This document shows, one piece after another, positions 2,210 to 52,403 of a stretch of 64,000 nucleotides of DNA (position 1 is the stretch's first letter; every line of letters starts with the position of its first letter). Under the pieces are notes generated by a model. It saw only the letters and a list, made by a program, of their open reading frames with translations, searched no databases and was not told where the DNA came from. The DNA is taken from sequence record PZ445437.1. One strand, written 5' to 3'. Both the position numbers and the translations under genes were made by a program. The DNA is from a phage.

Positions 2210-4906
2210 TCAGCCAAACAGGAAGTCTAACGAAGCTTTTTCTTCATAGTCCATACCAGCCGATTCACACATGCCTGCAAGCGGTTTAACAAACGATTTT
2301 TGGAACAAAGTTGAGTAGTCAATCCAAGACAGTACGTCAGAACGAATTTCTTTTGGAAGTTCTGTGCCCGACGGCCAAGCAATGCACTTTTCACCAAATG
2401 GATTTCCTTCACGCAATGGAAGAACCATTACTTTATTTCCATCCAAAATTGGAGCTACACCTAAACCGCTAACAGCTCGACGATAAGTTAGCACCCCACG
2501 AATATGGAACGGGCATTTAAATCCTGGCCAACCTTTATCATCATATTTCGCTATATCGTTCGCAGTTTTTACTTCAGCAATAACTTTATAGTCAAGTTGA
2601 CGATATTCTTTCTCGAAGTTCTTGTAATATTCTTGGACAGACTCTTCACCTTCCTGAAGAATACGACGAATACTTTCTTCGAGAGCTTCTTGGACCGCTT
2701 TAGGCGTTGAACTCTGCTGAGTTTCCATACCCATGATTTTTAGATGCGGTTCAGCAAATCGCTTATCTTCCATATCATAAACGTTCAGAGCATAACGCTT
2801 TTTCGCTTTCCAAAATCCACCGACGCCCTTTGAACCAAGTGGAGGGCAAGAAATAGCTTCACGGTCCATATGCATCAGATGCTCGCGGTTATTCATATAA
2901 TCACATAACTCACGATATGCAACATCAATCATAGGTTCCATCTTTTTCTTACCGAACTGATTCATGAATTCAACTAAATCGTTCTGCTCTTTGAATCGGT
3001 CAAGACCAACTTTTTCAATAACTTTATCTACACAAACATATACCGAATCAGTATCACCTGCTGCAATGAAATCTTCGCCATTAGTTCCGCATACTTTATT
3101 CAGATATTCATTAATTTTACGAGCAATCCACTGAATACCAACTTGGCCGAAAATTGTGATAGCAGTAGCATTTCGCAAATCATAGTAACGGAAATGAATA
3201 TTACCAAGAGCACCATAAAGACTGTTAATAAGAATTTTACGGTTCAGCTGATTTGTGTTAGCAAGTGTAGCTGCTTTTTCACATTCTTCAATCAAACTAT
3301 TGAGAACAGATTCAGTATAATTCGATAGTTCATTTAAGAAATCATCACTGAACTTAACATATCGTTCAACTTCTGGTTTAGTTGAACAAGACCCTGCGCC
3401 TTTCATAATAATCTTTTTAATAGCTTCGGCATTCATTTCTTCAGCGAACATTTTCTTTTTCCAATCTTTACGCTGGAAAAATACTTTAGCGATTTCCTTT
3501 GGAATGATACCTTCTTGATGCTTATCATACATCCATCCATTCGGAGAACAAGAATATTCATCACTTGGTTTAGGAGCTGTTCCTGCGATATATTCATGAA
3601 TTGGATGAACTTTAAACTGACCACGAATAGTCTCAGGACTAATGTTAACCTGACGAATAATGCTCGGATACAGAGACGTCAAGTCAAAACTCATAATATA
3701 TCGACGAGCAATTGGTTTAGGTTCAAACACAAATGCACCCGGAAAACTCTGTTTAACATGCGAACCTTGTTGAGGAATAACCTTATGTTCACCTTTCAAT
3801 GAGTTAAAAATAATGGCATCCCAGGTTTTAATAGGACTCATTACACCGGAAAAAGGCATTTTAGCGTAATAAGACATACTTAAAACTAGATCGATAAACC
3901 CGCGAATTTTATCAATTGCTTGAACTGATTCTACGTCAATGATGTTATAACTAATGTATCGTTGATGATTAGTCTCACGAAGTTTATTAATAGGACCGTC
4001 GTATGGTAATTTACCTTTTTTGGTTTCATGTTGAGCAACTGATTCCAAAGAGAATGACGGCAAATTAGTAAAAGCAAATTTCTTGTACAAATCTAAATAA
4101 TCAAGAATAGATACACCATCAATAGAATAAATTTCTTTGCTGCCGTACATATTTTGAATTAGTTTAGATTTTACTCGACCGATTGGAGAGAAGCGTTTCA
4201 TACTACGTTCACCGAGAACCATTTTAACGCGATTCATGATATACGGAACGTCAAATCCCTCAATATTCCAACCAGTAAAAATAGCAGGTCGTTTCTGTTC
4301 CCAGAGATTGATATATTCCATGAGCATATCACGCTCATTATCGAATGGCATATAAATTACTCGGTCAAGAATTTCTTGAGGAACTTCATCACCACCTTCA
4401 CAGTCAAGCTTAGCAGCTAACTTTGCATCCCATTTTGATACTGAACCATACATTGAATTCAAAAGGTCGAAAACATAAAAACGATCATCAATTGAATCGT
4501 AATGAGTGATAGCATCAATTTCATATTCAGCTTTCATTGGGTCAGGAAATTTATCACCAGTAACCTCAATGTCACAGTTAGCTACACGAACAAATTTTCG
4601 GTCATAAACAATTTCTGAACCGTATGTATCACTGATATAAGCGAGTTTAAAATCGTTCATACCGAGAGCTTCGAGACCGATGTCTTCCATTCGTTTCATC
4701 CAATCTCGAGCATCTTTCATTGATGGAAATTTTTGAGGAGCGCAGTTTTTACCATAGATGTCTTTGTACTTTGACTCTTCCTTACAATGCCTAAACATAG
4801 TTGGAAGATATTCTACTTCACGAGTACGTTCCTTTCCATTTTCATCAATATAACGTTCAACAATATTATTTCCGACTGTTTCAATAGAGATATAAAATTC
4901 TTTCAT
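2210..4906 (-). CDS. 43: DNA polymerase (family B, with 3'-5' exonuclease)
   Basis: 898 aa, identical length to T4 gp43; exo and pol motifs (e.g. YGGA.., DTDS). Confidence 0.97.
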   Translation of the reverse strand: MKEFYISIETVGNNIVERYIDENGKERTREVEYLPTMFRHCKEESKYKDIYGKNCAPQKFPSMKDARDWMKRMEDIGLEALGMNDFKLAYISDTYGSEIVYDRKFVRVANCDIEVTGDKFPDPMKAEYEIDAITHYDSIDDRFYVFDLLNSMYGSVSKWDAKLAAKLDCEGGDEVPQEILDRVIYMPFDNERDMLMEYINLWEQKRPAIFTGWNIEGFDVPYIMNRVKMVLGERSMKRFSPIGRVKSKLIQNMYGSKEIYSIDGVSILDYLDLYKKFAFTNLPSFSLESVAQHETKKGKLPYDGPINKLRETNHQRYISYNIIDVESVQAIDKIRGFIDLVLSMSYYAKMPFSGVMSPIKTWDAIIFNSLKGEHKVIPQQGSHVKQSFPGAFVFEPKPIARRYIMSFDLTSLYPSIIRQVNISPETIRGQFKVHPIHEYIAGTAPKPSDEYSCSPNGWMYDKHQEGIIPKEIAKVFFQRKDWKKKMFAEEMNAEAIKKIIMKGAGSCSTKPEVERYVKFSDDFLNELSNYTESVLNSLIEECEKAATLANTNQLNRKILINSLYGALGNIHFRYYDLRNATAITIFGQVGIQWIARKINEYLNKVCGTNGEDFIAAGDTDSVYVCVDKVIEKVGLDRFKEQNDLVEFMNQFGKKKMEPMIDVAYRELCDYMNNREHLMHMDREAISCPPLGSKGVGGFWKAKKRYALNVYDMEDKRFAEPHLKIMGMETQQSSTPKAVQEALEESIRRILQEGEESVQEYYKNFEKEYRQLDYKVIAEVKTANDIAKYDDKGWPGFKCPFHIRGVLTYRRAVSGLGVAPILDGNKVMVLPLREGNPFGEKCIAWPSGTELPKEIRSDVLSWIDYSTLFQKSFVKPLAGMCESAGMDYEEKASLDFLFG

Positions 4907-4924
4907 AGATATTCCTTAGTTTAT

Positions 4925-4943
4925 AGCCCGAGTTATTAGGCTC
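4925..4943 (-). promoter_or_regulatory. gp43 translational operator hairpin
   Basis: Minus strand reads GAGCCTAATAACTCGGGCTATAAACTAAGGAATATCTATG, matching the known T4 gene 43 autoregulatory operator upstream of the RBS. Confidence 0.6.
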
Positions 4944-4966
4944 TTGATATATTATACTCCAAATAA

Positions 4967-4980
4967 GGGGCCGAAGCCCC
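4967..4980 (-). terminator. Intrinsic terminator (GGGGC-UUCG-GCCCC)
   Basis: UUCG-tetraloop hairpin followed by U-rich tract, between regA and gene 43 operator. Confidence 0.5.
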
Positions 4981-5234
4981 TTTGCTTTAAATTTCTATTG
5001 TACGACGCGATATAACGGACTTGCCATCTGTATTTGTGGTTTTGATAATCGCATGAAATGCGCGTTGGCGTGGGTAAACTAATCGTTGGAATTCTTTTTG
5101 GAATTCTATTTGTTTATCTTCCGGGAGGTCAAAAACCAGTTGGGTAGAAGACAGACCATATGTTTGTTTTTAGATTTTCGAATATTAGAAAAGCTTCGGT
5201 AAACTGAATCTCTGATTGTGTCATATAATTTACC

Positions 5235-5603
5235 TTAATTACCAATCGTATATTTAGGAACGAGTTTCCATTCATGTTTTTGTTTAAAAGAAATAACTCG
5301 GAAGTTATTAGTTAAATCTTTCATAAAAGTTCTTTGACCAGGAACGATTTCAATCAGTCCCCAATCTTCTAATAGCCATGCAATCGAATCACGACGAACT
5401 TCATCTTCTTCTGTCATTTCAACTTGACGGCCATCCATACGAAGCATTTCTTTAAAATGAACGATATAGTATAGTCCTTTTTTCTGAAGAATATGACAGG
5501 ACTGATACAGAACTTTATCTTTATTATTAGCAATTCCCATACGAGTCAAAGTTTCTTTTACTTTCAGAAAATCTTCAGGTTTTTTAAGAGTAATTTCAAT
5601 CAT
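5235..5603 (-). CDS. regA: Translational repressor RegA
   Basis: 122 aa, T4 RegA length and position downstream of 62. Confidence 0.9.
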   Translation of the reverse strand: MIEITLKKPEDFLKVKETLTRMGIANNKDKVLYQSCHILQKKGLYYIVHFKEMLRMDGRQVEMTEEDEVRRDSIAWLLEDWGLIEIVPGQRTFMKDLTNNFRVISFKQKHEWKLVPKYTIGN

Positions 5604-8565: not shown

Positions 8566-10248
8566 TTAAACCATTACAGTAAATCGACCAACTTTCTTCA
8601 TTTGAAGATGCTGACCGTATGCTTGCGGGTCATGGTCTCTATGCGAAATAACAAAAACGTTAGTATTTTTTAAACTATCTAAAATAGTTGAAATAGCTTT
8701 TACACCTTCAACGTCGGTCGCTGAATCAAAAACTTCGTCAAGAATTAACGTGTTTATTTTAACACCTGAAACTTTTTCAGCAATATCACGCCAAGTAAAT
8801 AAAAGAGCAATATCAATTCGTGCTTTTTCACCTTGACTGAATGAAGCATAACTAAAATCTTCGCGACCACGGGATTTAATTGTCTCATTAAATTCTTCAT
8901 CTAATGTAAACACATAATCCGCTTCCATTATTTTAAGATAATGGTTAATCTGCTTATTAAATAATGGAATGTACTTTTTAATAATAGCACCTTTAATACC
9001 AGAATCTTTGAGCATATCAGTCAAAATTCCTCGGTGGTATTTTTCCATTACTAAATTAGTTTTTGTCTTAACAATTTTATCAAGTTCTTCTTGAAGCAGT
9101 GCTATTTCATCAGCATGGTCAATAAACTCAGAAGATGCTTTTTCTATAGCCGCTTTAACTTTTTTAGCTTTATCTACCGTTGTGATTAGAGATTGTTTTT
9201 TATTGCGAATATCATTTGCCAACGACTGCTGGGTTTTAATATTATCTCGGTATTCATCAACAAGAACTTTTAAATTATCACGATGCGTTGAAAGCTGTTC
9301 AAACGAATGCGTGCATTCAGAAACTTTATCTTTAATTTTAGAAACAACTTTATCACCGGAACTCAATTGTGACAAACAGGTTGGACATAATCCACCTTCG
9401 TGATACATATTAATGACTTTATTATACGAGTCAATTTTTGATTTAATTAAAACTGCTTCTTGACCGATTTTATTAAATGCATCAGTCGGGTCTTCATCCA
9501 AAACAATATTAACTAATCTTTCGTTAGCTTCTTCTATTTCCGATTTTAGCGTTCTAGCTTCTTTTGCCAAATCATCATACATATTTTGCAGACGAGTAAG
9601 GTTGTCACCTGTTAATTTTTTCTGGCGTTCAACGTTATCATTATATATTTTAATTTGTTGGATAATACTATCTTTTTTAACATCAAGCACTTGGTTCTGC
9701 GAATTTAATTCACGTATTAGTGCTTTATTAAGCTTATCCATTTCAGCTAATGTTCCTACCTCAAGCAGGTCTTCCACAAGCTTTCTTCGCGCAGGGGTCG
9801 ACAAACCCATGAAAGGGGTATACCCTGCTGTACCAAGGACAACAATCTGCTTGAAACTGGCATATGACATTCCGATAAGCTGTTCAAATTCTGCTTGGAA
9901 ATCTTTACTGCTGGCAGATTCATTAAGACGTGTACCGTTAACGGTGATTTCAAAAACGTTCGGTTTTTGTCCTCTTTTGATATAGTACTTTTTCTCATCA
10001 TATTCCATCCACAGTTCAACTAAAAGTTCTTTCTTATTTGTGCTGTTTATTAATTGACCTTTCTTTACATCACGGAATGGCTTGCCAAAAAGCCCAAATG
10101 TGATGGCTTCTAACATAGTAGACTTACCACCGCCATTTCGTCCAGTAATAAGAGTTTTTTGAACCTTATCTAATTGAATGTCAATAGGATTTCCACCTAC
10201 TGACATTATATTTTGATACCTAACTCGGTTTAGTTTAAAATTCTTCAC
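8566..10248 (-). CDS. 46: Recombination endonuclease subunit, Rad50/SbcC-like ATPase
   Basis: 560 aa (T4 gp46 length); Walker A GRNGGGKST, coiled-coil, CPTC zinc hook, signature/Walker B at C-terminus. Confidence 0.93.
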   Translation of the reverse strand: MKNFKLNRVRYQNIMSVGGNPIDIQLDKVQKTLITGRNGGGKSTMLEAITFGLFGKPFRDVKKGQLINSTNKKELLVELWMEYDEKKYYIKRGQKPNVFEITVNGTRLNESASSKDFQAEFEQLIGMSYASFKQIVVLGTAGYTPFMGLSTPARRKLVEDLLEVGTLAEMDKLNKALIRELNSQNQVLDVKKDSIIQQIKIYNDNVERQKKLTGDNLTRLQNMYDDLAKEARTLKSEIEEANERLVNIVLDEDPTDAFNKIGQEAVLIKSKIDSYNKVINMYHEGGLCPTCLSQLSSGDKVVSKIKDKVSECTHSFEQLSTHRDNLKVLVDEYRDNIKTQQSLANDIRNKKQSLITTVDKAKKVKAAIEKASSEFIDHADEIALLQEELDKIVKTKTNLVMEKYHRGILTDMLKDSGIKGAIIKKYIPLFNKQINHYLKIMEADYVFTLDEEFNETIKSRGREDFSYASFSQGEKARIDIALLFTWRDIAEKVSGVKINTLILDEVFDSATDVEGVKAISTILDSLKNTNVFVISHRDHDPQAYGQHLQMKKVGRFTVMV

Positions 10249-10508
10249 AAAAGATTCCTTTTAATGTATCTTTTAGACCATTCTATCATATCATCATAAT
10301 CTAAAAAGTATTCATCAAATTCAGCCATGCAAACAACACCTTGTGCTGCTTTTGATGTGATATAAATTATTCCAACATATCTAGAATCTTCTTCGGTGTA
10401 ATCAATATTTGCTATGAATTCATCATTAATGTCAAATGTCGAAAACTTCACAGTATGCATCCTTAATACAAGATACAGCCATATCTTGTAATGATTTAGG
10501 TGTGTCAT
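10245..10508 (-). CDS. Hypothetical protein (46.1 position; start uncertain)
   Basis: ORF overlapping the next ORF by 77 nt; internal Met at 10460 may be the true start. Confidence 0.35.
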   Translation of the reverse strand: MTHLNHYKIWLYLVLRMHTVKFSTFDINDEFIANIDYTEEDSRYVGIIYITSKAAQGVVCMAEFDEYFLDYDDMIEWSKRYIKRNLL

Positions 10509-10695
10509 TATCTAAAATGTTGAAGTTAAAAGATACAGCCCAGTCAGTGCAGACTGTAACCTTTTTAATACAATTATCTTCAACCTCTAGCGGTTCAAAC
10601 CAATATTCAATAATTTCTTTATGCCCAATATCATCTTTTACTTCGCATTCAAAATGCTGACTCATCATAACATTTTTAAATTCATCAAAAGTCAT
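10432..10695 (-). CDS. Hypothetical protein (87 aa, 46.2 position)
   Basis: ORF translationally coupled to gene 47 stop. Confidence 0.45.
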   Translation of the reverse strand: MTFDEFKNVMMSQHFECEVKDDIGHKEIIEYWFEPLEVEDNCIKKVTVCTDWAVSFNFNILDNDTPKSLQDMAVSCIKDAYCEVFDI

Positions 10696-11711
10696 TGTGT
10701 TGCCTCTACATATAGCTGGTTTGCATATTGAATAAGTGCTTCACGGTCAGAATCAGTGATGTCTGGAATTGCATTAATGTATTCTTCCATCAACGTCTGA
10801 AGAGATTGAACTTCAACTTCTTCACTGTCATCTGACTCGACAGAGTTATCAATTTTTGACACAACTCGTAATGAATGCACAACTTTTTCTAGTTCAGATT
10901 CGAACTTCGTTAGATTTTTGTCTACTTCAGTTACTATAACACGTACTGATAGATTTGTAAAATCTTTATAGTCAATTTTTCCTTTAAATGGATAATGAAT
11001 TCTACGATGCCAGGTAGTGTTGTTTGGAATAAATTCCATTCGTTCTGTTTCTGTATCAAACATCCAGAACCCACGAGGGTCATTCTCGTCACCTGCAGTT
11101 AGTGTCCATGGTGTCCCAATATATCTGACGTTAGCAGCCTCAGAGATAGTATGGAAGTGACCAGACCACACTTCTTTATAAGTCTTAAGGAAATCAGGTT
11201 CAAGACCATGAGATTTCATTCCTTTATAAAAATAAAATCCGTTCAGTTCCCAGTGACCAACGCAAAAAGAAGCAGATGAAGTTTTGATGTGTTCAAGAAT
11301 TTCACCAGTATTTTCTTCACACATCCAAGGAATTAAATCAATTAAACATCCGTCAAAATCTACTGTAGTAGGCTTATCATATACTTTAACATTAGGATAT
11401 TTAGCCAAAAGCTCAGTAGAGGCATTTGGATGCATTACATTTTTATAGTGGAGATCGTGATTTCCTACAATAGTGTGTAATGTAATTCCAGCATCATCAA
11501 GCGTTTGAACTATTTCACGGGCAAACTCCATAGTTTTATGTGTGATCGCTTTTCTCACATCAAAAATATCACCATATTGAATCCAGGTAGTAATTCCATT
11601 TTTCTTAGAATATTCTATTGCTTGTTTAATTCCATCAATTTGAATACCGCGAATCCACTCATCATCAGCTTTAACGCCTAAATGCCAATCACCCAAGTTT
11701 AGTATTTTCAT
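10692..11711 (-). CDS. 47: Recombination endonuclease subunit, Mre11/SbcD-like phosphoesterase
   Basis: 339 aa (T4 gp47 length); calcineurin-like motifs GDWH, GNHD. Confidence 0.93.
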   Translation of the reverse strand: MKILNLGDWHLGVKADDEWIRGIQIDGIKQAIEYSKKNGITTWIQYGDIFDVRKAITHKTMEFAREIVQTLDDAGITLHTIVGNHDLHYKNVMHPNASTELLAKYPNVKVYDKPTTVDFDGCLIDLIPWMCEENTGEILEHIKTSSASFCVGHWELNGFYFYKGMKSHGLEPDFLKTYKEVWSGHFHTISEAANVRYIGTPWTLTAGDENDPRGFWMFDTETERMEFIPNNTTWHRRIHYPFKGKIDYKDFTNLSVRVIVTEVDKNLTKFESELEKVVHSLRVVSKIDNSVESDDSEEVEVQSLQTLMEEYINAIPDITDSDREALIQYANQLYVEATQ

Positions 11712-12312
11712 GGTGTCTTTTCCATCCTAATTTAGCTGCTTTTGAAACTAGTTCTTTAATTTTTCCTTTTGTCCATTCAGGACCAGGAGGTTCATGACAT
11801 AACATTTGCTTAACTCCGTTATTATACCATTTTTTACCTTTATTATGTGATGAAGCTTTAAATTTATTTGACCTTCCTTTTACATAACCTTCTGGAATAT
11901 AAGGCAAAAAGGCAGATTTTCCTGTTAATGGATCATGTGAATGTATATTTCCTTTACAATTATGAGAACCATATAATGGATGATTTTGTCCTTTATTATC
12001 TCTTCCAAATGAACCTTTTGGAGCAGCATATGACATATTAAAGAATAATGGATTTTTAACTGCATCATGCAATCGTTGATAATATAACTCGCATTTAATA
12101 GCTTCTTCACGCGTATCAAATTCAGCTAAAATGCATGAATCAAATAAGTGAGGATTATCTGAAAGCTCTTTATTATAAATTTTCTTATACTTTTTAGATA
12201 AAACTGAACCATGATATCCAGCTAAATGCCTATCTAAAGACGTAGATCCAATATAAAAAGGAGGAAGTTTATCTCCACTATATATTGTTAAATAAGTTAT
12301 ATATTTTTTCAT
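11689..12312 (-). mobile_element. Freestanding GIY-YIG (Seg-type) homing endonuclease gene, 207 aa
   Basis: N-terminal YITYL..(x10)..FYIGS GIY-YIG motif; NUMOD-like GxNHPLYG repeat; 3' end overlaps gene 47 start by 23 nt. Confidence 0.65.
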
Positions 12313-12449
12313 ATATCAAGAACCGTCATTGAAATGCAAAATAAAATTATTGAAATAAATCCATCTGGAGTGCTAAAGAACCCAATCCAACATGCTCTAG
12401 TGAATAGATAAAATGCAAGAAAAAGTATCACATATCCAAGAAATATCAT
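12309..12449 (-). CDS. Small hydrophobic peptide (46 aa)
   Basis: Hand-translated MIFLGYVILFLAFYLF...; its TGA overlaps the ATG of the GIY-YIG gene (ATGA). Confidence 0.3.
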   Translation of the reverse strand: MIFLGYVILFLAFYLFTRACWIGFFSTPDGFISIILFCISMTVLDI

Positions 12450-12472
12450 TATATCAAACTCCGTATAAAGCT

Positions 12473-12490
12473 AAAGGGCCGAAGCCCTTT
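12473..12490 (-). terminator. Intrinsic terminator after a-gt
   Basis: AAAGGGC-UUCG-GCCCUUU hairpin overlapping the a-gt stop codon. Confidence 0.5.
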
Positions 12491-13691
12491 ATTTTGTAAT
12501 AATGTCAAACTGTTCTTTAAAGCAGAAGCTTGAATCTTGATGCTGATACAAAAATTCATATGCTTTTTCTCGCTCACGGTCATAAAGAGCTCGGTCAGAT
12601 GACAGTTCTTTAATACGTTCAAATGTTGATTCCATATCATTTTCATCAAACCAAATGATACCGCTATCATGCGAGGTCAAAGGAGTATTATCAACACGGA
12701 ATTTTAAATTTTCGCCAGTAGATTTCCAAAATACCGGAATTGTTCCACATGCACCAAGCTCGAGATGAGTATATTCTAAAGAACGTTGTAGATATTTTTT
12801 ATCCAACTTACTCAACTGATAACCAAAACCGGATTTACTCATACGCTCAAGCATTTCGCTATTTACATAACGATCGAGAATTTGCGTTGGCAAATTAGGA
12901 GCAATTTTAATTTGGTCTACTTGATGAAGACGATAATACTCGTATTGAATTCCTTTTTCTTTAATAGGAATGAACGCTGGAGAACGTTCCAGACCTTCCA
13001 TAATAGTACTTAGTCCTGCAGGTTTAAGATGTTTTTCATGAAAATCAAACATCTGATAAAAACCTTTCCATGTAGTCGTACGACCAATCCAACGGTTGAT
13101 ATTCATGTTAATTTCAGAAACATCTTTCCAGTAGGTTGACCGAACCTTCGCAATATCCATAGGAGGCTGAAAGTTATATACTGTCGGTGCTTCTTCAATA
13201 TCATCAAACAGAGAAACAGTTTCTGGATACCATTCTTTCATCAGAACTTTATTAAAATCACCATTATCAGAATGGCTAAAAATAACATCAGCTCGACGAA
13301 CAGTTTCTTCTAATCCCAAATTTCGACGCAAAGAAAGAGAAGAATGGTCATGCTGATAAACTACAACACGAACCGAAGGTTTAATGTTATCAATAATTTT
13401 TTTATAGTTATTAATAGTGTCTTCTTCAACCGAAGTAGCAGGAACTGAATTGATAATTAGAATATCACAATCATTTACCAGCTTAAGTGTTTTATCATAT
13501 TCTTTTGCCAATAAAACCGGAATTGAAAATGATTTATAATCATGCGCGCAATTACGAGTAAATGATTTATCTTTAGCATAAACCAAAGTCACTTCATGAC
13601 CATTTTTAATAAACCAATCACGTTGCTCGAGTGAGAATTTTGTTACACCACAACCTTCAAGACCTCGAGCCATAAAAATACATACTTTCAT
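12489..13691 (-). CDS. a-gt: DNA alpha-glucosyltransferase
   Basis: 400 aa, T4 alpha-gt length; N-term MKVCIFMARGLEGCGVTKFS matches T4 alpha-gt as recalled. Confidence 0.9.
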   Translation of the reverse strand: MKVCIFMARGLEGCGVTKFSLEQRDWFIKNGHEVTLVYAKDKSFTRNCAHDYKSFSIPVLLAKEYDKTLKLVNDCDILIINSVPATSVEEDTINNYKKIIDNIKPSVRVVVYQHDHSSLSLRRNLGLEETVRRADVIFSHSDNGDFNKVLMKEWYPETVSLFDDIEEAPTVYNFQPPMDIAKVRSTYWKDVSEINMNINRWIGRTTTWKGFYQMFDFHEKHLKPAGLSTIMEGLERSPAFIPIKEKGIQYEYYRLHQVDQIKIAPNLPTQILDRYVNSEMLERMSKSGFGYQLSKLDKKYLQRSLEYTHLELGACGTIPVFWKSTGENLKFRVDNTPLTSHDSGIIWFDENDMESTFERIKELSSDRALYDREREKAYEFLYQHQDSSFCFKEQFDIITK

Positions 13692-13715
13692 TTAATATCC
13701 TCTTTGTTTTGGTTT

Positions 13716-13740
13716 ATTTTACCAAAAATTTATAAAGCAA
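13716..13740 (-). promoter_or_regulatory. Middle (MotA-dependent) promoter upstream of a-gt
   Basis: Minus strand TTGCTTTA (MotA box) then 11 nt then TAAAAT (-10), followed by GAGGA RBS and ATG. Confidence 0.4.
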
Positions 13741-13742
13741 TA

Positions 13743-13760
13743 TAGGAGCCGAAGCTCCTA
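13743..13760 (-). terminator. Intrinsic terminator (UAGGAGC-UUCG-GCUCCUA)
   Basis: UUCG-tetraloop hairpin plus U-rich tract upstream of the a-gt promoter. Confidence 0.5.
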
Positions 13761-13934
13761 TCCGCATAATACGCCATACAGAGGCTCGTTAGAACTTTTA
13801 AATTTTATGCGCTTATATTTTATAGTTCCTTCTGCTTTAGCTTTATCATGAGACTCTTTAAAGCGTCTCATCATTTCCTCTTTAGAGGAACGAATTTTAT
13901 TATAATCTATTTCAGAAGTCTGGGTGTTCATCTT

Positions 13935-18033: not shown

Positions 18034-18504
18034 TTAATCATGTGTCCACACCCCATCGGTATTTGACCAAAGTCGCTGATTATCTGATCCTCGCCACAGC
18101 TTTTTAGTCGGAAGATTTTTCTCATACTTCCCATCAATAATAACATCAACATATTTAAGCATTTCTAGTTGTTTAATATCTTCAAACTTATATCCTGTCC
18201 ACAACCAAATGCTTTTATTGGGATAAAGATTTTTAATAGTTTGAACCACAGAGTGAATCACGTCTCTGTTATCAGGATAAAGAGGGTCACCTCCGGTTAT
18301 AGTCAATCCTTCTATATAATCATTATTCAAACATTCAATTAATTGTTCTAGTGTTTCACCAGTGAATGGAACACCATTTCTAGCATTCCATGTTGATTTA
18401 TTATAACACCCTTCGCATTTATGCAAACAACCTGTAACGAAAAGAACTGTCCTGCATCCAGGACCATTAACAAAGCAGCACGGGTATATTCTGTCATAAT
18501 TCAT
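18034..18504 (-). CDS. nrdG: Anaerobic ribonucleotide reductase activating protein (radical SAM)
   Basis: 156 aa (T4 NrdG length); CxxxCxxC cluster motif. Confidence 0.9.
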   Translation of the reverse strand: MNYDRIYPCCFVNGPGCRTVLFVTGCLHKCEGCYNKSTWNARNGVPFTGETLEQLIECLNNDYIEGLTITGGDPLYPDNRDVIHSVVQTIKNLYPNKSIWLWTGYKFEDIKQLEMLKYVDVIIDGKYEKNLPTKKLWRGSDNQRLWSNTDGVWTHD

Positions 18505-19333
18505 TTATATATTTCCAATTATAGCCTTCAACACTTTTACGTTCGCCATTTAAACATTTTAAAATATTTCCTTTGCTAGAAATATTAAAATATTTTGCTG
18601 CGTCTGGTATATAATTAAATGTTTTTAAAAGAACACCATCTTTATATGCGCCAAATAAATTAAGAGTATATTTTTCTCGAAGACGCTGATGTTTCCTTTT
18701 CATAACCTCAGGATTTGCATACGCCAACTTCAATGAATTTCTGTGTTTTTCTTTTACTTCAGGTTTTTGCATTGCTAACTTAGTTAGCCTGGAAATTTTA
18801 TTTCTAACTTCGTCAGTTTTCATTGCATTTGACAAATTTAATAAAGTTTTATTTCTAACTTCAGGTTTTTGCATTGCTAGCTTAGTTAGTTCTCTATGTC
18901 TTTTTCTAAAATCGTCATCCTTCCATATATTTTTCGATAATTTTGACATAGAGCGGTGAAATAATTCCTTTTCACTGGAATACAATTTAAAAATTTCATC
19001 CAATTCATCCGCATTAAATCTATCGGTATTCGAGTTTATCATTCTATGAAAGGCATAACACATTTTACTATTGCTTGTTTTAGCTAAATAGTAATGAGCT
19101 AACGCATGGTCATAATATGACAAATTAACAATATTCCATTTATCTGTTTTATATTCAGGAAATATAGATTTGGGAAGCACGTGATGTGCTTCCGTTTTTC
19201 CTTTTATTTTAGGATTATTATAATTTTTTGTTATCAAATCAACATATGACAATAGTAAATCATTATTTTCTTCAAATATTAAAGATAATTTATCATTCAC
19301 AAAATCGCAAGGATAAAATCTATCATAATTCAT
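18494..19333 (-). mobile_element. Freestanding HNH homing endonuclease gene (279 aa, Mob-like)
   Basis: HNH motif EAHHVLPKS..N..YDHALAHYY; tandem NUMOD-like repeats (TKLAMQKPEV x2); ATG overlaps nrdD stop; first 13 codons resemble nrdG. Confidence 0.8.
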
Positions 19334-21147
19334 TGGTGTTTAACCCTATGCATGATTTCTTTATTTTTACCGAGATTAAATCCGCGTTCGTTCGGATTTC
19401 CCAAATAACCACATGTTCTTCTTATTGTGTTCATCTTTTTAGGATCAGTTTCTCCACAAATAGAACAAACAAATCCGTTTTCAGTAGGAGTCATTTCATG
19501 GGTACTTCCACATGTAAAACATTTATCTACTGGCATATTAACACCAAAATAATCTAAATGTTGTGCAGCATAATCCCATACGGCCTCAAGACCCTTTAAG
19601 TTATTTTTCATATCAGGAAGTTCAACATAAGAAATGTGACCACCTGTCGCAATGAAATGATATGGCGCTTCACGAGAAATCTTTTCAAACGGAGTAATAT
19701 TTTCTTCTACTGAAACGTGGAAACTGTTAGTGTACCAGCCTTTATCGGTAACATCTTTTACACTTCCATATTTTTCTGTATCAAGTTTACAGAAGCGATA
19801 ACAAAGGTTTTCAGCAGGAGTAGAATACAAACTAAAAGCAAACCCAGTTCTTTCAGTCCACTGTTTAAGACGAGCATTCATTTTAGTTAAAATTTCTCGT
19901 CCAATATCACGACCTACAAGAATATTCAATTCGTGAATACCAATGTATCCTAGAGACACTGAACTTCTGCCATTTTTAAATAACTCAATTATATCGTCAT
20001 CAGGTTTAAGACGAACCCCGAATGCACCTTCTTGGTAAAGAATAGGAGCAACAGTTGCTTTAACTCCTTTTAAGGAACTAATTCTACACATCAAAGCTTC
20101 AAAACACAAATCCATTCGCTCATTGAACAATTCGATAAATTTCTGTTCATTGAACTGTGTTCCAATATAAGAATCTAATGCGATACGAGGAAGATTCAGT
20201 GTTACAACACCAAGATTATTACGTCCATCAAGAATTTCATTACCAGTCGAATCTTTCCATACGCTCAAGAAACTACGGCAACCCATCGGAGAAACAGGAA
20301 CAGATGAACCAGTGATAGCTTTATTGTTCTTAGCTGAAATAATATCAGGATACATCCTTTTGCTTGCGCACTCTAGAGCAAGCTGTTTAATATCATAGTT
20401 CGGATCGTCTTTATAAAGATTAACACCTTCTTCAACAAACATAACAAGCTTAGGGAAAATAGGAGTTATCCCATCACGACCAAGACCTTTAATACGATTT
20501 TTCAGAATTGCTTTCTGAATCATTCGTTCAGTCCAGTCAGTTCCCGTACCAAATGTAATTGTTACAAAAGGCGTTTGTCCGTTTGAACTAAAGAGAGTAT
20601 TTACTTCATATTCATAAGCTTGGAATGCATCGTATACATCTTTTTCTGTTTTAGATTGAGCATAATTCAGTGCATCGGCGATTTGCCATTTTTCTGCATC
20701 CTCAATATGTTTTGCATAGGTGCGTTTAACATAAGGAGAAAGTACTTTATCTACATTAGCAAAAGTCGTTCCGCCGTATTGATGGGAAGCAACCTGTGCA
20801 GTAATTTGTGCCATAATTGCAGTAGCAACTCCAATTGATTTAGGAGTTTCAATCTGCGCATTACCAAGCTTAAATCCGTTCTCAAGCATTCCTTTTAAAT
20901 CTACTAAACAGCAATTAGTAAAAGGCAATGATATACTGTAATCTAAATCATGAAAATGAATTAATCCAACATTATGGGCATTTACAATATGACTTGGAAG
21001 AATACGACAAGCGATATGTTTAGAAACAATACCGGCCATTAAATCTCTTTTTGTTGGAAAGACGCGAGAATCTTTGTTGGCGTTTTCTGTATTTAATTCT
21101 TTATCTTTATTTGAAATAAAATTTAAAACATCTTTTTCTAAAGACAT
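19330..21147 (-). CDS. nrdD: Anaerobic ribonucleoside-triphosphate reductase (glycyl radical enzyme), uninterrupted
   Basis: 605-aa continuous ORF (T4 NrdD spliced length); C-terminal glycyl radical region and Cys-rich zinc site. Confidence 0.95.
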   Translation of the reverse strand: MSLEKDVLNFISNKDKELNTENANKDSRVFPTKRDLMAGIVSKHIACRILPSHIVNAHNVGLIHFHDLDYSISLPFTNCCLVDLKGMLENGFKLGNAQIETPKSIGVATAIMAQITAQVASHQYGGTTFANVDKVLSPYVKRTYAKHIEDAEKWQIADALNYAQSKTEKDVYDAFQAYEYEVNTLFSSNGQTPFVTITFGTGTDWTERMIQKAILKNRIKGLGRDGITPIFPKLVMFVEEGVNLYKDDPNYDIKQLALECASKRMYPDIISAKNNKAITGSSVPVSPMGCRSFLSVWKDSTGNEILDGRNNLGVVTLNLPRIALDSYIGTQFNEQKFIELFNERMDLCFEALMCRISSLKGVKATVAPILYQEGAFGVRLKPDDDIIELFKNGRSSVSLGYIGIHELNILVGRDIGREILTKMNARLKQWTERTGFAFSLYSTPAENLCYRFCKLDTEKYGSVKDVTDKGWYTNSFHVSVEENITPFEKISREAPYHFIATGGHISYVELPDMKNNLKGLEAVWDYAAQHLDYFGVNMPVDKCFTCGSTHEMTPTENGFVCSICGETDPKKMNTIRRTCGYLGNPNERGFNLGKNKEIMHRVKHQ

Positions 21148-21959
21148 AATTCTAATTTATCCTTTTGAAATTCTTCGTCTAAATATGGGTTCCAACCCAT
21201 TTTAAACCTTTTGATGAAATTATCAATTCTAAATTTCGGTAAGTTTAAATCCGCAAAAATAGATGATTTACTTTTAAAATCTGGACTTAAATAATCATAT
21301 AAAATTTCTGCGTATTTTAACCATAATATACAAGTACCAGATTTAATTGCTCTCGGAGTTTTCCAAGGTTTTACACCATACATCGGATTTCCGCTTCCTT
21401 TATGCCTGATAGAAGATGAAATTCCAATTTTAATTTTAGCTTCCTTTGTATGCGAAAATCCACGATGTGGATTTTCTTTCCAGTATTTTTTAGAAGCTTC
21501 TGATATTTTCTTTCTGGCTAAATTAGTATGATGCTTTCCATAAAATCCATGATTTTTGCCTTTATTACGATTTCTTTTAATCATGGTTATTGATTGCTTT
21601 TCTCTAGTTTCTTTAGAAGGAGAAATACCATATGTCGTAAATTTGCCATCAGCATATGCTAAATTAAAATACTCTTTATTCCATACATCTTTTTCTATAT
21701 TCTTTTGAAATTCAGCTTCAATGCTAGTTATTTGTTCATCTCCGACTAATTGAAAATATAATATTTCAACTTTCGGCGTTTCTTTCAATAAGGCTTTTTG
21801 AAATTCGGAAGATGACGAAGACGAATAATAAAATTTACCATTTTTATCAATAATATTCGTTCCATCAAAAGTGCAATTGGTTTTACTTCCAATGTAATAA
21901 TATGGTGGGGTTTTAGCATTAATTCTATTAATAAATGATAGTTTATATACTACATTCAT
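21138..21959 (-). mobile_element. Freestanding GIY-YIG (Seg-type) homing endonuclease gene, 273 aa
   Basis: VYKLSF..(x9)..YYIGS GIY-YIG motif; GKNHGFYGKHH and GSGNPMYG NUMOD-like repeats; paralogous to 11689..12312; ATGA overlap with gene 49 stop. Confidence 0.6.
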
Positions 21960-22429
21960 TTTAAACTCTTTCTAAGCTGCTTCTTAAATGAAGCTATTAA
22001 TTGTGTTTTAGTGTCAGATTCATTATATTCAAATCCTCTTTGAAGCATCTCAGCCATCATTTCCTCTTTTCCTAAACGAGAAAATTCCTTTGATTTATCT
22101 CCAACGAAGTTAGGGTGAATATTATTTTGGGTGTAATCGGATTTTAAATAAGTAAGTAAATTTTCTAACCATTCAAGATAATCAACTCCTTGTCCCTTTA
22201 AGCCAGAACGATTAAATTTATGCTTCATTTGACCTTCTGCGGCATTGCAGAGATTACAAAGCAATCCACGTACCTTTCCTGCTTTTGGTCCATTTAATTC
22301 ATGGTCATGGTCGAGGTGATTAGCTTGAACATCAGGATTTAGTTCTCGTTGGCAAATTAAGCATTTACCATTTTGTGCATCATAAAATTTCTGTTTTTCT
22401 TCTTTATATAATTTGCCAGTCAATAACAT
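21956..22429 (-). CDS. 49: Endonuclease VII (Holliday junction resolvase)
   Basis: 157 aa (T4 endo VII length); zinc/His box CLIC...HLDHDHELNG. Confidence 0.9.
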   Translation of the reverse strand: MLLTGKLYKEEKQKFYDAQNGKCLICQRELNPDVQANHLDHDHELNGPKAGKVRGLLCNLCNAAEGQMKHKFNRSGLKGQGVDYLEWLENLLTYLKSDYTQNNIHPNFVGDKSKEFSRLGKEEMMAEMLQRGFEYNESDTKTQLIASFKKQLRKSLK

Positions 22430-42806: not shown

Positions 42807-43457
42807 TTATATATTGTTAATTTGATTTAGAATTCTTTTTGCTTGAGTATGACTTACGCCAATATGCTTAGCATATTTAGATAATTCACCACGCTTAGAA
42901 AAATCATATAATTTAGAAATTTCTATTCTTCTTTTTCTTTCATCCACAGAAACTTTTGCTTCGTTTGCTTTTGCTATTTTACGTTTAGCTTCTTGAGAAT
43001 GAGTTTTACCAGCAAAGCCATTCTTCATTAATCCATTTGAAGACCATCCTTTTAATTTTCCGTTAGAATGTGCCTTTTTAACACCCAATGAAATTAATTC
43101 GCGTTGCTGGTCTGTCATAGGATAATTATTTATATGATCCCATCCACCTTCACCGCCAAGTTTTAAATTATACACATCTGGTCTATTTAAAAACTCTTCT
43201 GTAACAATATTTTTCTCGGCTTCAAGCATAGATTCTTTATCATCAAAATACTCTAATATTTCTTTAGAAAAATTTTCTATACCATACTTATCTTGGGCTC
43301 TTTTTAATAATTTACCAGAACCCATATATCCATCATCTAAATTTTCGGTAGAATGCACACCAATATAAATTTTATTATTAATTTTATTTGTTATTTTATA
43401 AAGATAAAAATGCATATCAGTCCCTAATAAAGAACTGAGCGTCTCACGACGAGTCAT
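42807..43457 (-). mobile_element. segB: GIY-YIG homing endonuclease SegB-like, inside tRNA cluster
   Basis: FYLYKITNKINNKIYIGVH...DDGYMGSG GIY-YIG motif; located between tRNA-Gly and tRNA-Ser as segB is in T4; probable true start at internal Met (43415). Confidence 0.8.
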
Positions 43458-43461
43458 AAAT

Positions 43462-43535
<74 letters not shown>

Positions 43536-51331: not shown

Positions 51332-51826
51332 ATGGAAGGTTCTTCTATCGACGTCACCTTTACCGCTCAATTAGAAACAGGTGAAACGTTAGTATCTATA
51401 AATATAACTAGTTACGAAGAAACTCCTGGGGTTTTAGTAGAAGAAAATCGCTTATATGGAACATATGAATCTGTGTTTGGATTTGGAAATGACGCGTTGA
51501 AATATCGTTTAGGCGATGAATTTAAAACTTCTGCTTCATGGGAAGAACTTCCTACTGATTCTGATACTCAGTTGTATTTGTGGAAAGCTCCTCAGAATCT
51601 CCAGAAGACATTCACTTACGAAGTAACATTAATATATGACTACCAAGAACAAAGTGAATCTGGAGGTTCTGGTAGTAATTCTAGGTCATCTTCTGATACT
51701 ACTGAACCAACAGATCCTCCTGCTCCAGTAAGAAAAACTCTCGTTAAAAATTATACTAAAACTATAGTTGGAAATTGGAGTCGTTGGGCTAATAAACTGA
51801 GAGAATATGTCTATGCAAGACCATAA
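51332..51826 (+). CDS. Hypothetical protein (5.1 position)
   Basis: ATG at 51332 with GGAG RBS (track ORF begins 51269 inside gene 5). Confidence 0.5.
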   Translation: MEGSSIDVTFTAQLETGETLVSINITSYEETPGVLVEENRLYGTYESVFGFGNDALKYRLGDEFKTSASWEELPTDSDTQLYLWKAPQNLQKTFTYEVTLIYDYQEQSESGGSGSNSRSSSDTTEPTDPPAPVRKTLVKNYTKTIVGNWSRWANKLREYVYARP

Positions 51827-52403
51827 ATATTTTTATTTGTATTCAATAACTAATAAAACAACAGGAAAAATTTATGTAGGCGTCCACAAAACTTCAAATT
51901 TGGATGATGGGTATATGGGTTCTGGCGTTGCCATTAAAAATGCCATTAAAAAATATGGCATAGATAATTTTTATAAGCATATTATAAAATTCTTTGAATC
52001 TGAAAAAGCTATGTATGACGCAGAGGCAGAAATAGTCACAGAGGAATTTGTTAAATCTAAGAAAACTTATAATATGAAACTAGGCGGTATCGGTGGCTTC
52101 CCAAAACATAACACAGCGGGTGCTAAAAATGGATTTTACGGTAAATCTCATTCGCGTGAAACTAGATTGAAAATTAGCATTAAATCGTCTAGAAAAAGAG
52201 GGCCTAGAGGGCCTAGAGGTAAAACTCTGAAGATGTGTGGCGCCAATAACCCAAGGTATGGCAAAATAGCCCCTAATGCTAAATCTGTTATTATCAACGG
52301 CGTTTTATATAAAAGTATTAAAATCGCAGCTAAAGCTCTTAATATAAATTATAGTACCTTAAAGGGGCGAGTTAAAGCGGGGTATTATAAATGTCAGGAT
52401 TAA
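51807..52403 (+). mobile_element. GIY-YIG homing endonuclease, SegC-like (198 aa)
   Basis: YFYLYSITNKTTGKIYVGVH...DDGYMGSG; clear paralogue of the segB-like gene; sits between 5.1 and 5.4. Confidence 0.75.

Follow-up and report, generated by a model that had tools for sequence, protein, structure and literature searches.

A free-standing Seg-type GIY-YIG endonuclease gene overlapping the 5' end of gene 47 in a T4-like phage

The T4-type phages are the classic system of intronless homing, and only a handful of their Seg enzymes have been characterised. Cleavage and non-reciprocal transfer have been shown experimentally for SegE. The cuts of SegF and SegG fall in genes 56 and 32, some distance away from where the two are inserted. 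Here we describe a 207-codon open reading frame (ORF) found directly upstream of gene 47 in a 64,000-nucleotide stretch of phage DNA (sequence record PZ445437.1; this whole stretch is called the window below). The window belongs to a T4-like phage of the genus Tequatrovirus, and the 1.4-kb region around the ORF shares 99.5% identity with Escherichia phage vB_EcoM_NBG2. Among free-standing GIY-YIG homing endonuclease genes, the ORF adds a new and uncharacterised member to the known Seg class. By analogy with the characterised members, it probably encodes an active homing endonuclease whose target is the 5' end of gene 47. The features on which the argument turns are these:

11689-12312 (stop included), minus strand: Seg-like GIY-YIG endonuclease ORF, free-standing, 207 codons, ATG start
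11705-12312, minus strand: insertion relative to T4 (T4 pairwise comparison and five-way alignment)
10692-11711, minus strand: gene 47, Mre11/SbcD-like nuclease subunit (Metallophos), 339 amino acids
12309-12449, minus strand: gene 47.1, 46 codons, hydrophobic (T4 NP_813808; PHROG 6693, E-value 1.5e-31)

In T4 the TGA of gene 47.1 directly overlaps the ATG of gene 47, with no endonuclease between them. Pairwise comparison places a net 601 extra base pairs in the window precisely at this ATGA junction. The insert is bounded by a 7-nucleotide direct repeat, ATGAAAA (12306-12312 and 11705-11711), inside which the break point is ambiguous, and this same ATGAAAA is the beginning of gene 47 and also that of the inserted ORF. 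T4 lacks the endonuclease ORF, and its upstream flank is otherwise identical over 215 nucleotides. The start codon that gene 47 uses in T4, with its upstream context, here serves the inserted ORF, and the start of gene 47 now lies within the 3' end of the insert. The endonuclease insert has captured gene 47's own start region. At one end, the TGA of 47.1 overlaps the ATG of the 207-codon ORF within the ATGA at 12309-12312. At the other, the ORF and gene 47 share 23 nucleotides (11689-11711), the first 23 nucleotides of gene 47 serving as the last seven codons and stop of the endonuclease. An earlier note on this DNA, made from its letters, had given the ORF coordinates and both overlaps, and all were exact on re-checking. 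It had missed that the endonuclease took over the gene 47 start region, and that the same lineage stands before gene 47 in several phage groups.

The note had further treated the 46-codon ORF as a micro-ORF coupled to the endonuclease, the two making a pair. Its reading of the endonuclease as such, and as mobile, stands; the pairing does not. The small ORF is annotated in T4 as gene 47.1, a predicted membrane protein. Between T4 and the window there is no difference from the end of a-gt to the end of 47.1, whose DNA matches at 100%, and in T4 it adjoins gene 47. Within Dhakavirus, phage MX01 has no endonuclease and its 47.1 homologue (locus positions 561-704) abuts gene 47, and phage QL01 has the endonuclease and no 47.1. 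Because T4 has 47.1 without the endonuclease and Dhakavirus has each without the other, 47.1 is a resident phage gene and no part of the inserted element. The micro-ORF as a component of the element is ruled out by these comparisons. Gene 47.1 is itself polymorphic in Dhakavirus, being found in MX01 and missing from dhabil and from the endonuclease carrier QL01.

The assignment of the 207-residue protein to the GIY-YIG family is marginal on sequence alone and is supported by the predicted fold. Pfam PF01541 (GIY-YIG) matches it with an E-value of 3e-4 and 21.4 bits, against a curated cut-off of 22.6, which is a statistical criterion. The same model matches 13 of 38 relatives at E-values of 0.01 or below, the best being 2.4e-5. 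Among the PHROG families, 10820 (named "HNH endonuclease") matches at 1e-94 and phrog_314 ("homing endonuclease") at 5e-18. NCBIfam yielded no match to the protein; the PDB chain sequences, I-TevI included, yielded no meaningful one, whether searched with the protein or with the family profile; and the PADLOC defence models yielded no significant one, their sole hit being "homing endonuclease" at an E-value of 0.01. An identical protein is present in a database of 5.8 billion proteins (E-value 3e-140; cluster of 55 sequences), as are about 170 relatives that share the first 115 or so residues and have swapped C-terminal parts, many with NUMOD3 repeats. The 207-codon frame is therefore not a chance ORF. 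An AlphaFold2 model and the residue-conservation counts given below were based on 38 relatives. The protein divides into two regions:

12013-12312, minus strand: N-terminal catalytic domain, residues 1-100, beta-beta-alpha-alpha-beta-alpha, GIY-YIG fold
11692-12003, minus strand: C-terminal putative DNA-binding region, residues 104-207, aligning with the C-terminal regions of SegE and SegB in a profile search

The predicted catalytic domain has strands at residues 4-11, 19-25 and 57-65 and helices at 26-30, 40-52 and 68-81, with a predicted local distance difference test (pLDDT) score of 91-98 across residues 1-90. A Foldseek search against the PDB puts the catalytic domain of I-TevI on top (probability 1.00 and 0.99) and Slx1 next, with PD-T4-3, UvrC, Eco29kI and T4 EndoII as further structural matches. 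The catalytic residues were mapped by MAFFT alignment with the T4 Seg proteins and I-TevI. The "GIY" tyrosine (Y11, in T-I-Y11) and the "YIG" motif (Y20-I21-G22) occur in all 37 relatives covering the region, and E75 and N92 are invariant (38/38). N92 aligns with I-TevI N90, and E75 with the Seg glutamate, at most one residue from I-TevI E75. G32-Y33-x-G35-S36, the counterpart of the Seg "DGYMGSG" signature, is conserved in 37-38 of the 38 relatives. With the fold and the conserved Tyr, Tyr-Ile-Gly, Glu and Asn motifs present on alignment, the earlier identification as a GIY-YIG-type homing endonuclease is borne out. The C-terminal region is modelled less confidently (pLDDT 45-91) and carries a NUMOD3-like G-x-N-H-P-L-Y-G followed by two Seg-type repeats (IPEGYVKGR; KWYNNG...PEWTKGK). 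Pfam NUMOD3 is found at the C-terminal position in 18 of the 38 relatives.

When the family profile was compared with an 11-sequence set of T4 GIY-YIG proteins, SegE came out best (E-value 1.7e-13), followed by SegG (6.5e-8) and SegC (2.9e-7), with SegB, SegD, SegF and SegA weaker. A single-sequence phmmer search of T4 with the 207-residue protein found SegG only (6e-4). The SegE match extends over both the catalytic and the C-terminal regions (40.7 bits), and the relationship is distant. The shared motifs are YIG, G-Y-x-G-S, the helix glutamate, Y/F-N-M, W-x-N-N-G and P-E/D-G-F/W-x-K-G-R. Both genes are free-standing, each with a gene of DNA metabolism directly downstream. The loci differ, since segE is found between hoc/inh and uvsW, and so does the state of knowledge: SegE cleavage has been shown experimentally, whereas the endonuclease at the gene 47 site is known here from its sequence. 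The gene-47 family also departs from the Seg proteins in having S-T in place of the Seg histidine after YIG and a 5-residue insertion after G-S. With SegF and SegG it shares an ORF that overlaps an essential neighbour (11 nucleotides for segF and gene 56, 23 for the endonuclease and gene 47) and a polymorphic distribution among T-even phages. The expected mechanism would be shared too, that is, a double-strand break in the allele lacking the endonuclease gene followed by co-conversion of flanking markers. SegF and SegG cut at a distance from their insertion sites, whereas the enzyme described here would presumably cut at the start of gene 47. I-TevI is the best structural match to the predicted catalytic domain and is likewise modular (catalytic domain, linker and DNA-binding modules), with a weak NUMOD3-like similarity, for which hhalign of the family alignment against the single I-TevI sequence gives a probability of 11%. 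I-TevI differs in being encoded by the td intron, and its zinc finger and helix-turn-helix were not detected in the free-standing 207-residue protein.

The insert is accompanied by a small cluster of changes in gene 47:

11694, 11697, 11702 and 11703 (span 11694-11703), minus strand: four substitutions in codons 3-6 of gene 47 (alignment with T4)

Codons 3-6 read ATT TTA AAT TTA in T4 and ATA CTA AAC TTG in the window, leaving gene product 47 (gp47) unchanged, and the next difference from T4 in gene 47 comes 69 nucleotides beyond the four. The flanks match 520 records of the annotated phage collection, of which 68 span the insert, so that about 13% of the matching Tequatrovirus records carry the endonuclease gene. 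An IMG/VR scan with a gene 47 26-mer gave just 6 loci, and the counts here come from the annotated collection. T4, T2 and RB18 have the empty junction, and the carriers include many different RefSeq species exemplars, with NBG2 and the BASEL phage FriedrichMiescher among them. Junction-specific 40-mers, designed so that any seed covers all four variable sites, sorted the database records as follows:

Empty junction, T4-type codons: 447 records
Empty junction, window-type codons: 9 records
Endonuclease present, T4-type codons: 1 record (ERS-1)
Endonuclease present, window-type codons: 66 records

With 447 empty records against 66-68 carrying ones, the gene is far from conserved at this position in all relatives, which agrees with the mobility proposed earlier. 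The T4-type empty junction reads GATATATGAAAATTTTAAATTTAGGTGATTGG, and the variant empty junction, as in BCPEco_001, reads ATGAAAATACTAAACTTGGGT. A comparison of three carriers with two non-carriers in Dhakavirus shows synonymous differences at nucleotides 9, 12 and 15 of gene 47. Nucleotide 18 differs as well, except in the carrier NC-G, so that the same four codons are involved as in Tequatrovirus. Judged from these alignments, the codon 3-6 pattern is likely to be a target and immunity signature, placed at the beginning of gene 47 and shortly ahead of the conserved GDWH motif.

Six carriers show 19 segregating sites in the insert, of which only 3 are protein-changing, and purifying selection is therefore indicated. 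Nucleotide diversity is 1.2% in the insert, about half that of the flanks (2.3% in gene 47 and 2.6% in a-gt). The carriers differ among themselves in gene 47 haplotype from 70-130 nucleotides into the gene, and such mosaic flanks are compatible with gene conversion onto different backgrounds.

Full-length relatives, 50-72% identical, stand directly upstream of gene 47 in five other phage groups, represented by Klebsiella phage SmallBear, Winklervirus LC53, Dhakavirus QL01/IME540, Mosigvirus AV116 and Aeromonas Biquartavirus L9-6. They usually overlap gene 47 by 1-23 nucleotides, Winklervirus LC53 having instead a 121-nucleotide gap. The neighbour on the other side varies: gene 47.1 in some, a-gt.2 or genes from around gene 55 in others. 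Where only the catalytic domain is shared and the C-terminus is of NUMOD3 type, the relatives lie upstream of gene 39, not 47. This gene 39 clade, represented by Klebsiella phage pKp20 and coliphage Bp7, is 52-67% identical in the catalytic domain and likewise lies upstream of, and overlaps, an essential gene. It differs in its C-terminus, which consists of NUMOD3 repeats plus a terminal module, and in its neighbour. In this sister clade the overlap with the topoisomerase gene 39 is 8-14 nucleotides (pKp20, locus 1998-2690; Bp7, locus 2004-2684). A modular homing endonuclease, with its target set by the DNA-binding part, is expected to show swapped C-termini and different neighbours of this kind.

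A model of homing can be proposed by comparison with SegB, SegE, SegF and SegG. When a carrier and an endonuclease-less phage infect the same cell, the enzyme would cut the genome of the latter at or close to the 47.1/47 junction, presumably where gene 47 starts, shortly ahead of the codons of the GDWH metallophosphoesterase motif. Recombination with the carrier genome as template would then repair the break, copying in the gene together with short flanks. The insertion would protect the carrier by splitting the site, and the four synonymous changes in codons 3-6 may add to this protection. The endonuclease gene is probably transcribed with the 47/46 operon and its translation is probably coupled to that of 47.1, while translation of gp47 may in turn be coupled to the endonuclease ORF.

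Several observations weigh against this model. The Pfam GIY-YIG score is just under the curated cut-off. R28, in the first helix (26-30) and the candidate for I-TevI R27, falls in a column with K in 21, R in 9 and N, Q or E in 8 of the 38 relatives. The T4 Seg proteins have no basic residue aligned with R28, and the better conserved R68 (R in 36 relatives, K in 2) is on a different helix. The 207-residue form is without the C-terminal module of about 45 residues seen in longer relatives, a lack that could weaken its binding to DNA. All four linked substitutions are found at most 17 nucleotides from the insert, so that tight linkage alone could explain their association with it. They also alter the endonuclease's own tail, and one of them makes the stop codon of the Dhakavirus endonuclease. 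The carrier record ERS-1 has T4-type codons. This record (PP337211.1) is flagged UNVERIFIED_ORG and shows many homopolymer-length differences, the a-gt hairpin included. A reading of ERS-1 as a decayed copy was set aside, its frameshifts being probably sequencing errors. The distribution counts are of database records, with RefSeq/GenBank duplicates and related phages among them, and do not represent independent lineages. Between genera, the divergence of the endonuclease roughly tracks that of gp47, although the rankings are not fully congruent. Vertical descent with loss fits the divergence data as well as mobility or occasional transfer does. Finally, a literature search returned no cleavage or homing data for the 207-residue protein.

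Other explanations of the ORF can be set against an active homing endonuclease. RefSeq records and PHROG 10820 use the name "HNH endonuclease", but there is next to no probability that the protein is one, or that the ORF is spurious. No HNH family is among the Pfam matches, the fold matches and motifs are those of GIY-YIG and not HNH enzymes, and the ORF is conserved and under purifying selection. Pfam, the fold and the motif alignment together refute both ideas, and the database label appears to be a misnomer. Many RefSeq records repeat it, and in phage GiZh (locus positions 1812-2568) the endonuclease ORF is unannotated. A role of the nuclease in competition or defence, in place of its own spread, is very unlikely; in such a role it might cut the gene 47 region of co-infecting relatives, or host or satellite DNA. 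The T4 Seg and Mob endonucleases do contribute to the partial exclusion of T2 (review PMC2993671), and the putative target here lies in an essential gene. However, localized marker exclusion is what intronless homing looks like in crosses and hardly counts as a mechanism of its own, and PADLOC offers no significant defence-model match.

A different possibility, which we regard as unlikely, is that the gene once encoded a homing endonuclease, has become domesticated or "stuck", no longer homes in Tequatrovirus and is kept for the translation start context of gene 47 or some other service to the phage. The arrangement invites this idea, since the ORF sits between two coupled junctions (the ATGA with 47.1, and a stop 20 nucleotides beyond the gene 47 ATG) and there is no strong Shine-Dalgarno sequence before the gene 47 start. 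A tail motif, W-K/E-R-x-H/R-E/N-E-N, is also kept over the gene 47 start in Tequatrovirus, the Klebsiella phage and Dhakavirus. The short form without the terminal module of longer relatives, the purifying selection, and an endonuclease divergence similar to that of gp47 would fit domestication as well. On the other hand, only about 13% of the Tequatrovirus records carry the gene and precise empty sites are the norm; the endonuclease gene is therefore dispensable for gp47 expression. The conserved catalytic Tyr, Glu and Asn residues would be needless in a mere translational leader, and both the insert diversity, about half that of the flanks, and the mosaic flanks fit spread by gene conversion. 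The divergence does indicate that the association with gene 47 is old. Because the endonuclease roughly tracks gp47, an ancient tie is suggested, and one may speculate that the lineage was already bound to gene 47 before the T-even-like genera parted from the Aeromonas Biquartavirus phages, and that it persists past the usual cycle of invasion, decay and loss by means of the coupled chain 47.1-endonuclease-47. This we consider quite unlikely. If true, mutations stopping translation of the endonuclease would lower the essential gp47, and "translational addiction" would be a route to the persistence of a selfish gene.

The remaining features of the locus bear mostly on how an active homing endonuclease at this site might be expressed:

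12489-13691, minus strand: a-gt (Pfam AGT, E-value 2e-236)
12472-12491, minus strand: UUCG-tetraloop hairpin GGGC-UUCG-GCCC, terminator-like, 3' of a-gt; same sequence in T4
12448-12473, minus strand: putative middle-promoter-like site from a motif search, with a MotA-box-like TAGCTTTA, a 12-nucleotide spacer and TATAAT; same in T4
10432-10695, minus strand: 46.2
10245-10508, minus strand: 46.1
8566-10248, minus strand: gene 46

The hairpin next to 47.1 and the endonuclease ORF, which the earlier note had placed at 12473-12490, has a weak T-run on the gene strand and is annotated as a terminator in some GenBank records (e.g. GiZh). The TATAAT, as a -10 hexamer, overlaps the ATG of 47.1. Farther upstream there is a near-consensus middle-promoter-like site before a-gt (TTGCTTTA, 12 nucleotides, TAAAAT; about 13715-13745, minus strand), and beside it a second UUCG-tetraloop hairpin, GGAGC-UUCG-GCUCC (13742-13761, minus strand). 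Rfam gave no credible RNA family between 10500 and 14000. A motif search for the late-promoter motif TATAAATA found none near the endonuclease ORF, which leaves late-promoter control, as known for some T4 endonuclease genes, unsupported. Expression from 47/46 operon transcripts is therefore plausible, and the arrangement is most simply read as an endonuclease gene co-transcribed with 47/46 and translated by coupling.

Other homing-type genes occur in the window. A phmmer search against T4 proteins identified a segB-like ORF at 42810-43490 (minus strand, E-value 2e-62), a segC-like ORF at 51801-52400 (plus strand, 2e-88), a segG-like ORF at 21141-21971 (minus strand, 5e-28), and a mob-like HNH ORF at 18497-19339 (minus strand), whose best match is mobD (1e-18). 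In some Tequatroviruses another ORF, of 855 nucleotides, lies between 46.1 and 46 (BCPEco_001 locus 4473-5327; PhiZZ23 locus 1-349, annotated "homing endonuclease"). The 46.1/46 site is a second polymorphic insertion site in the operon, and the window is without the 855-nucleotide ORF. T4 carries the HNH gene mobB between a-gt and a-gt.2 (T4 locus 2886-3680). The window has no mobB at 13692-13931, and an a-gt.2-like ORF of 57 codons is found there at 13758-13931.

A literature search, whose coverage was incomplete so that a prior description is possible, found no endonuclease gene described upstream of gene 47. The finding changes no general concept. The gene defines an uncharacterised Seg-related clade that consistently stands before gene 47, which encodes an Mre11-like nuclease, and the labels "HNH endonuclease" and "hypothetical protein" should be corrected across this clade. 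Together, the gene 47 and gene 39 clades form a natural test of how target specificity is rewired by domain exchange. In co-infections, the 46/47-a-gt region of a carrier would be expected to replace that of its relatives, which matters for interpreting the mosaicism of these phages and for phage cocktails.

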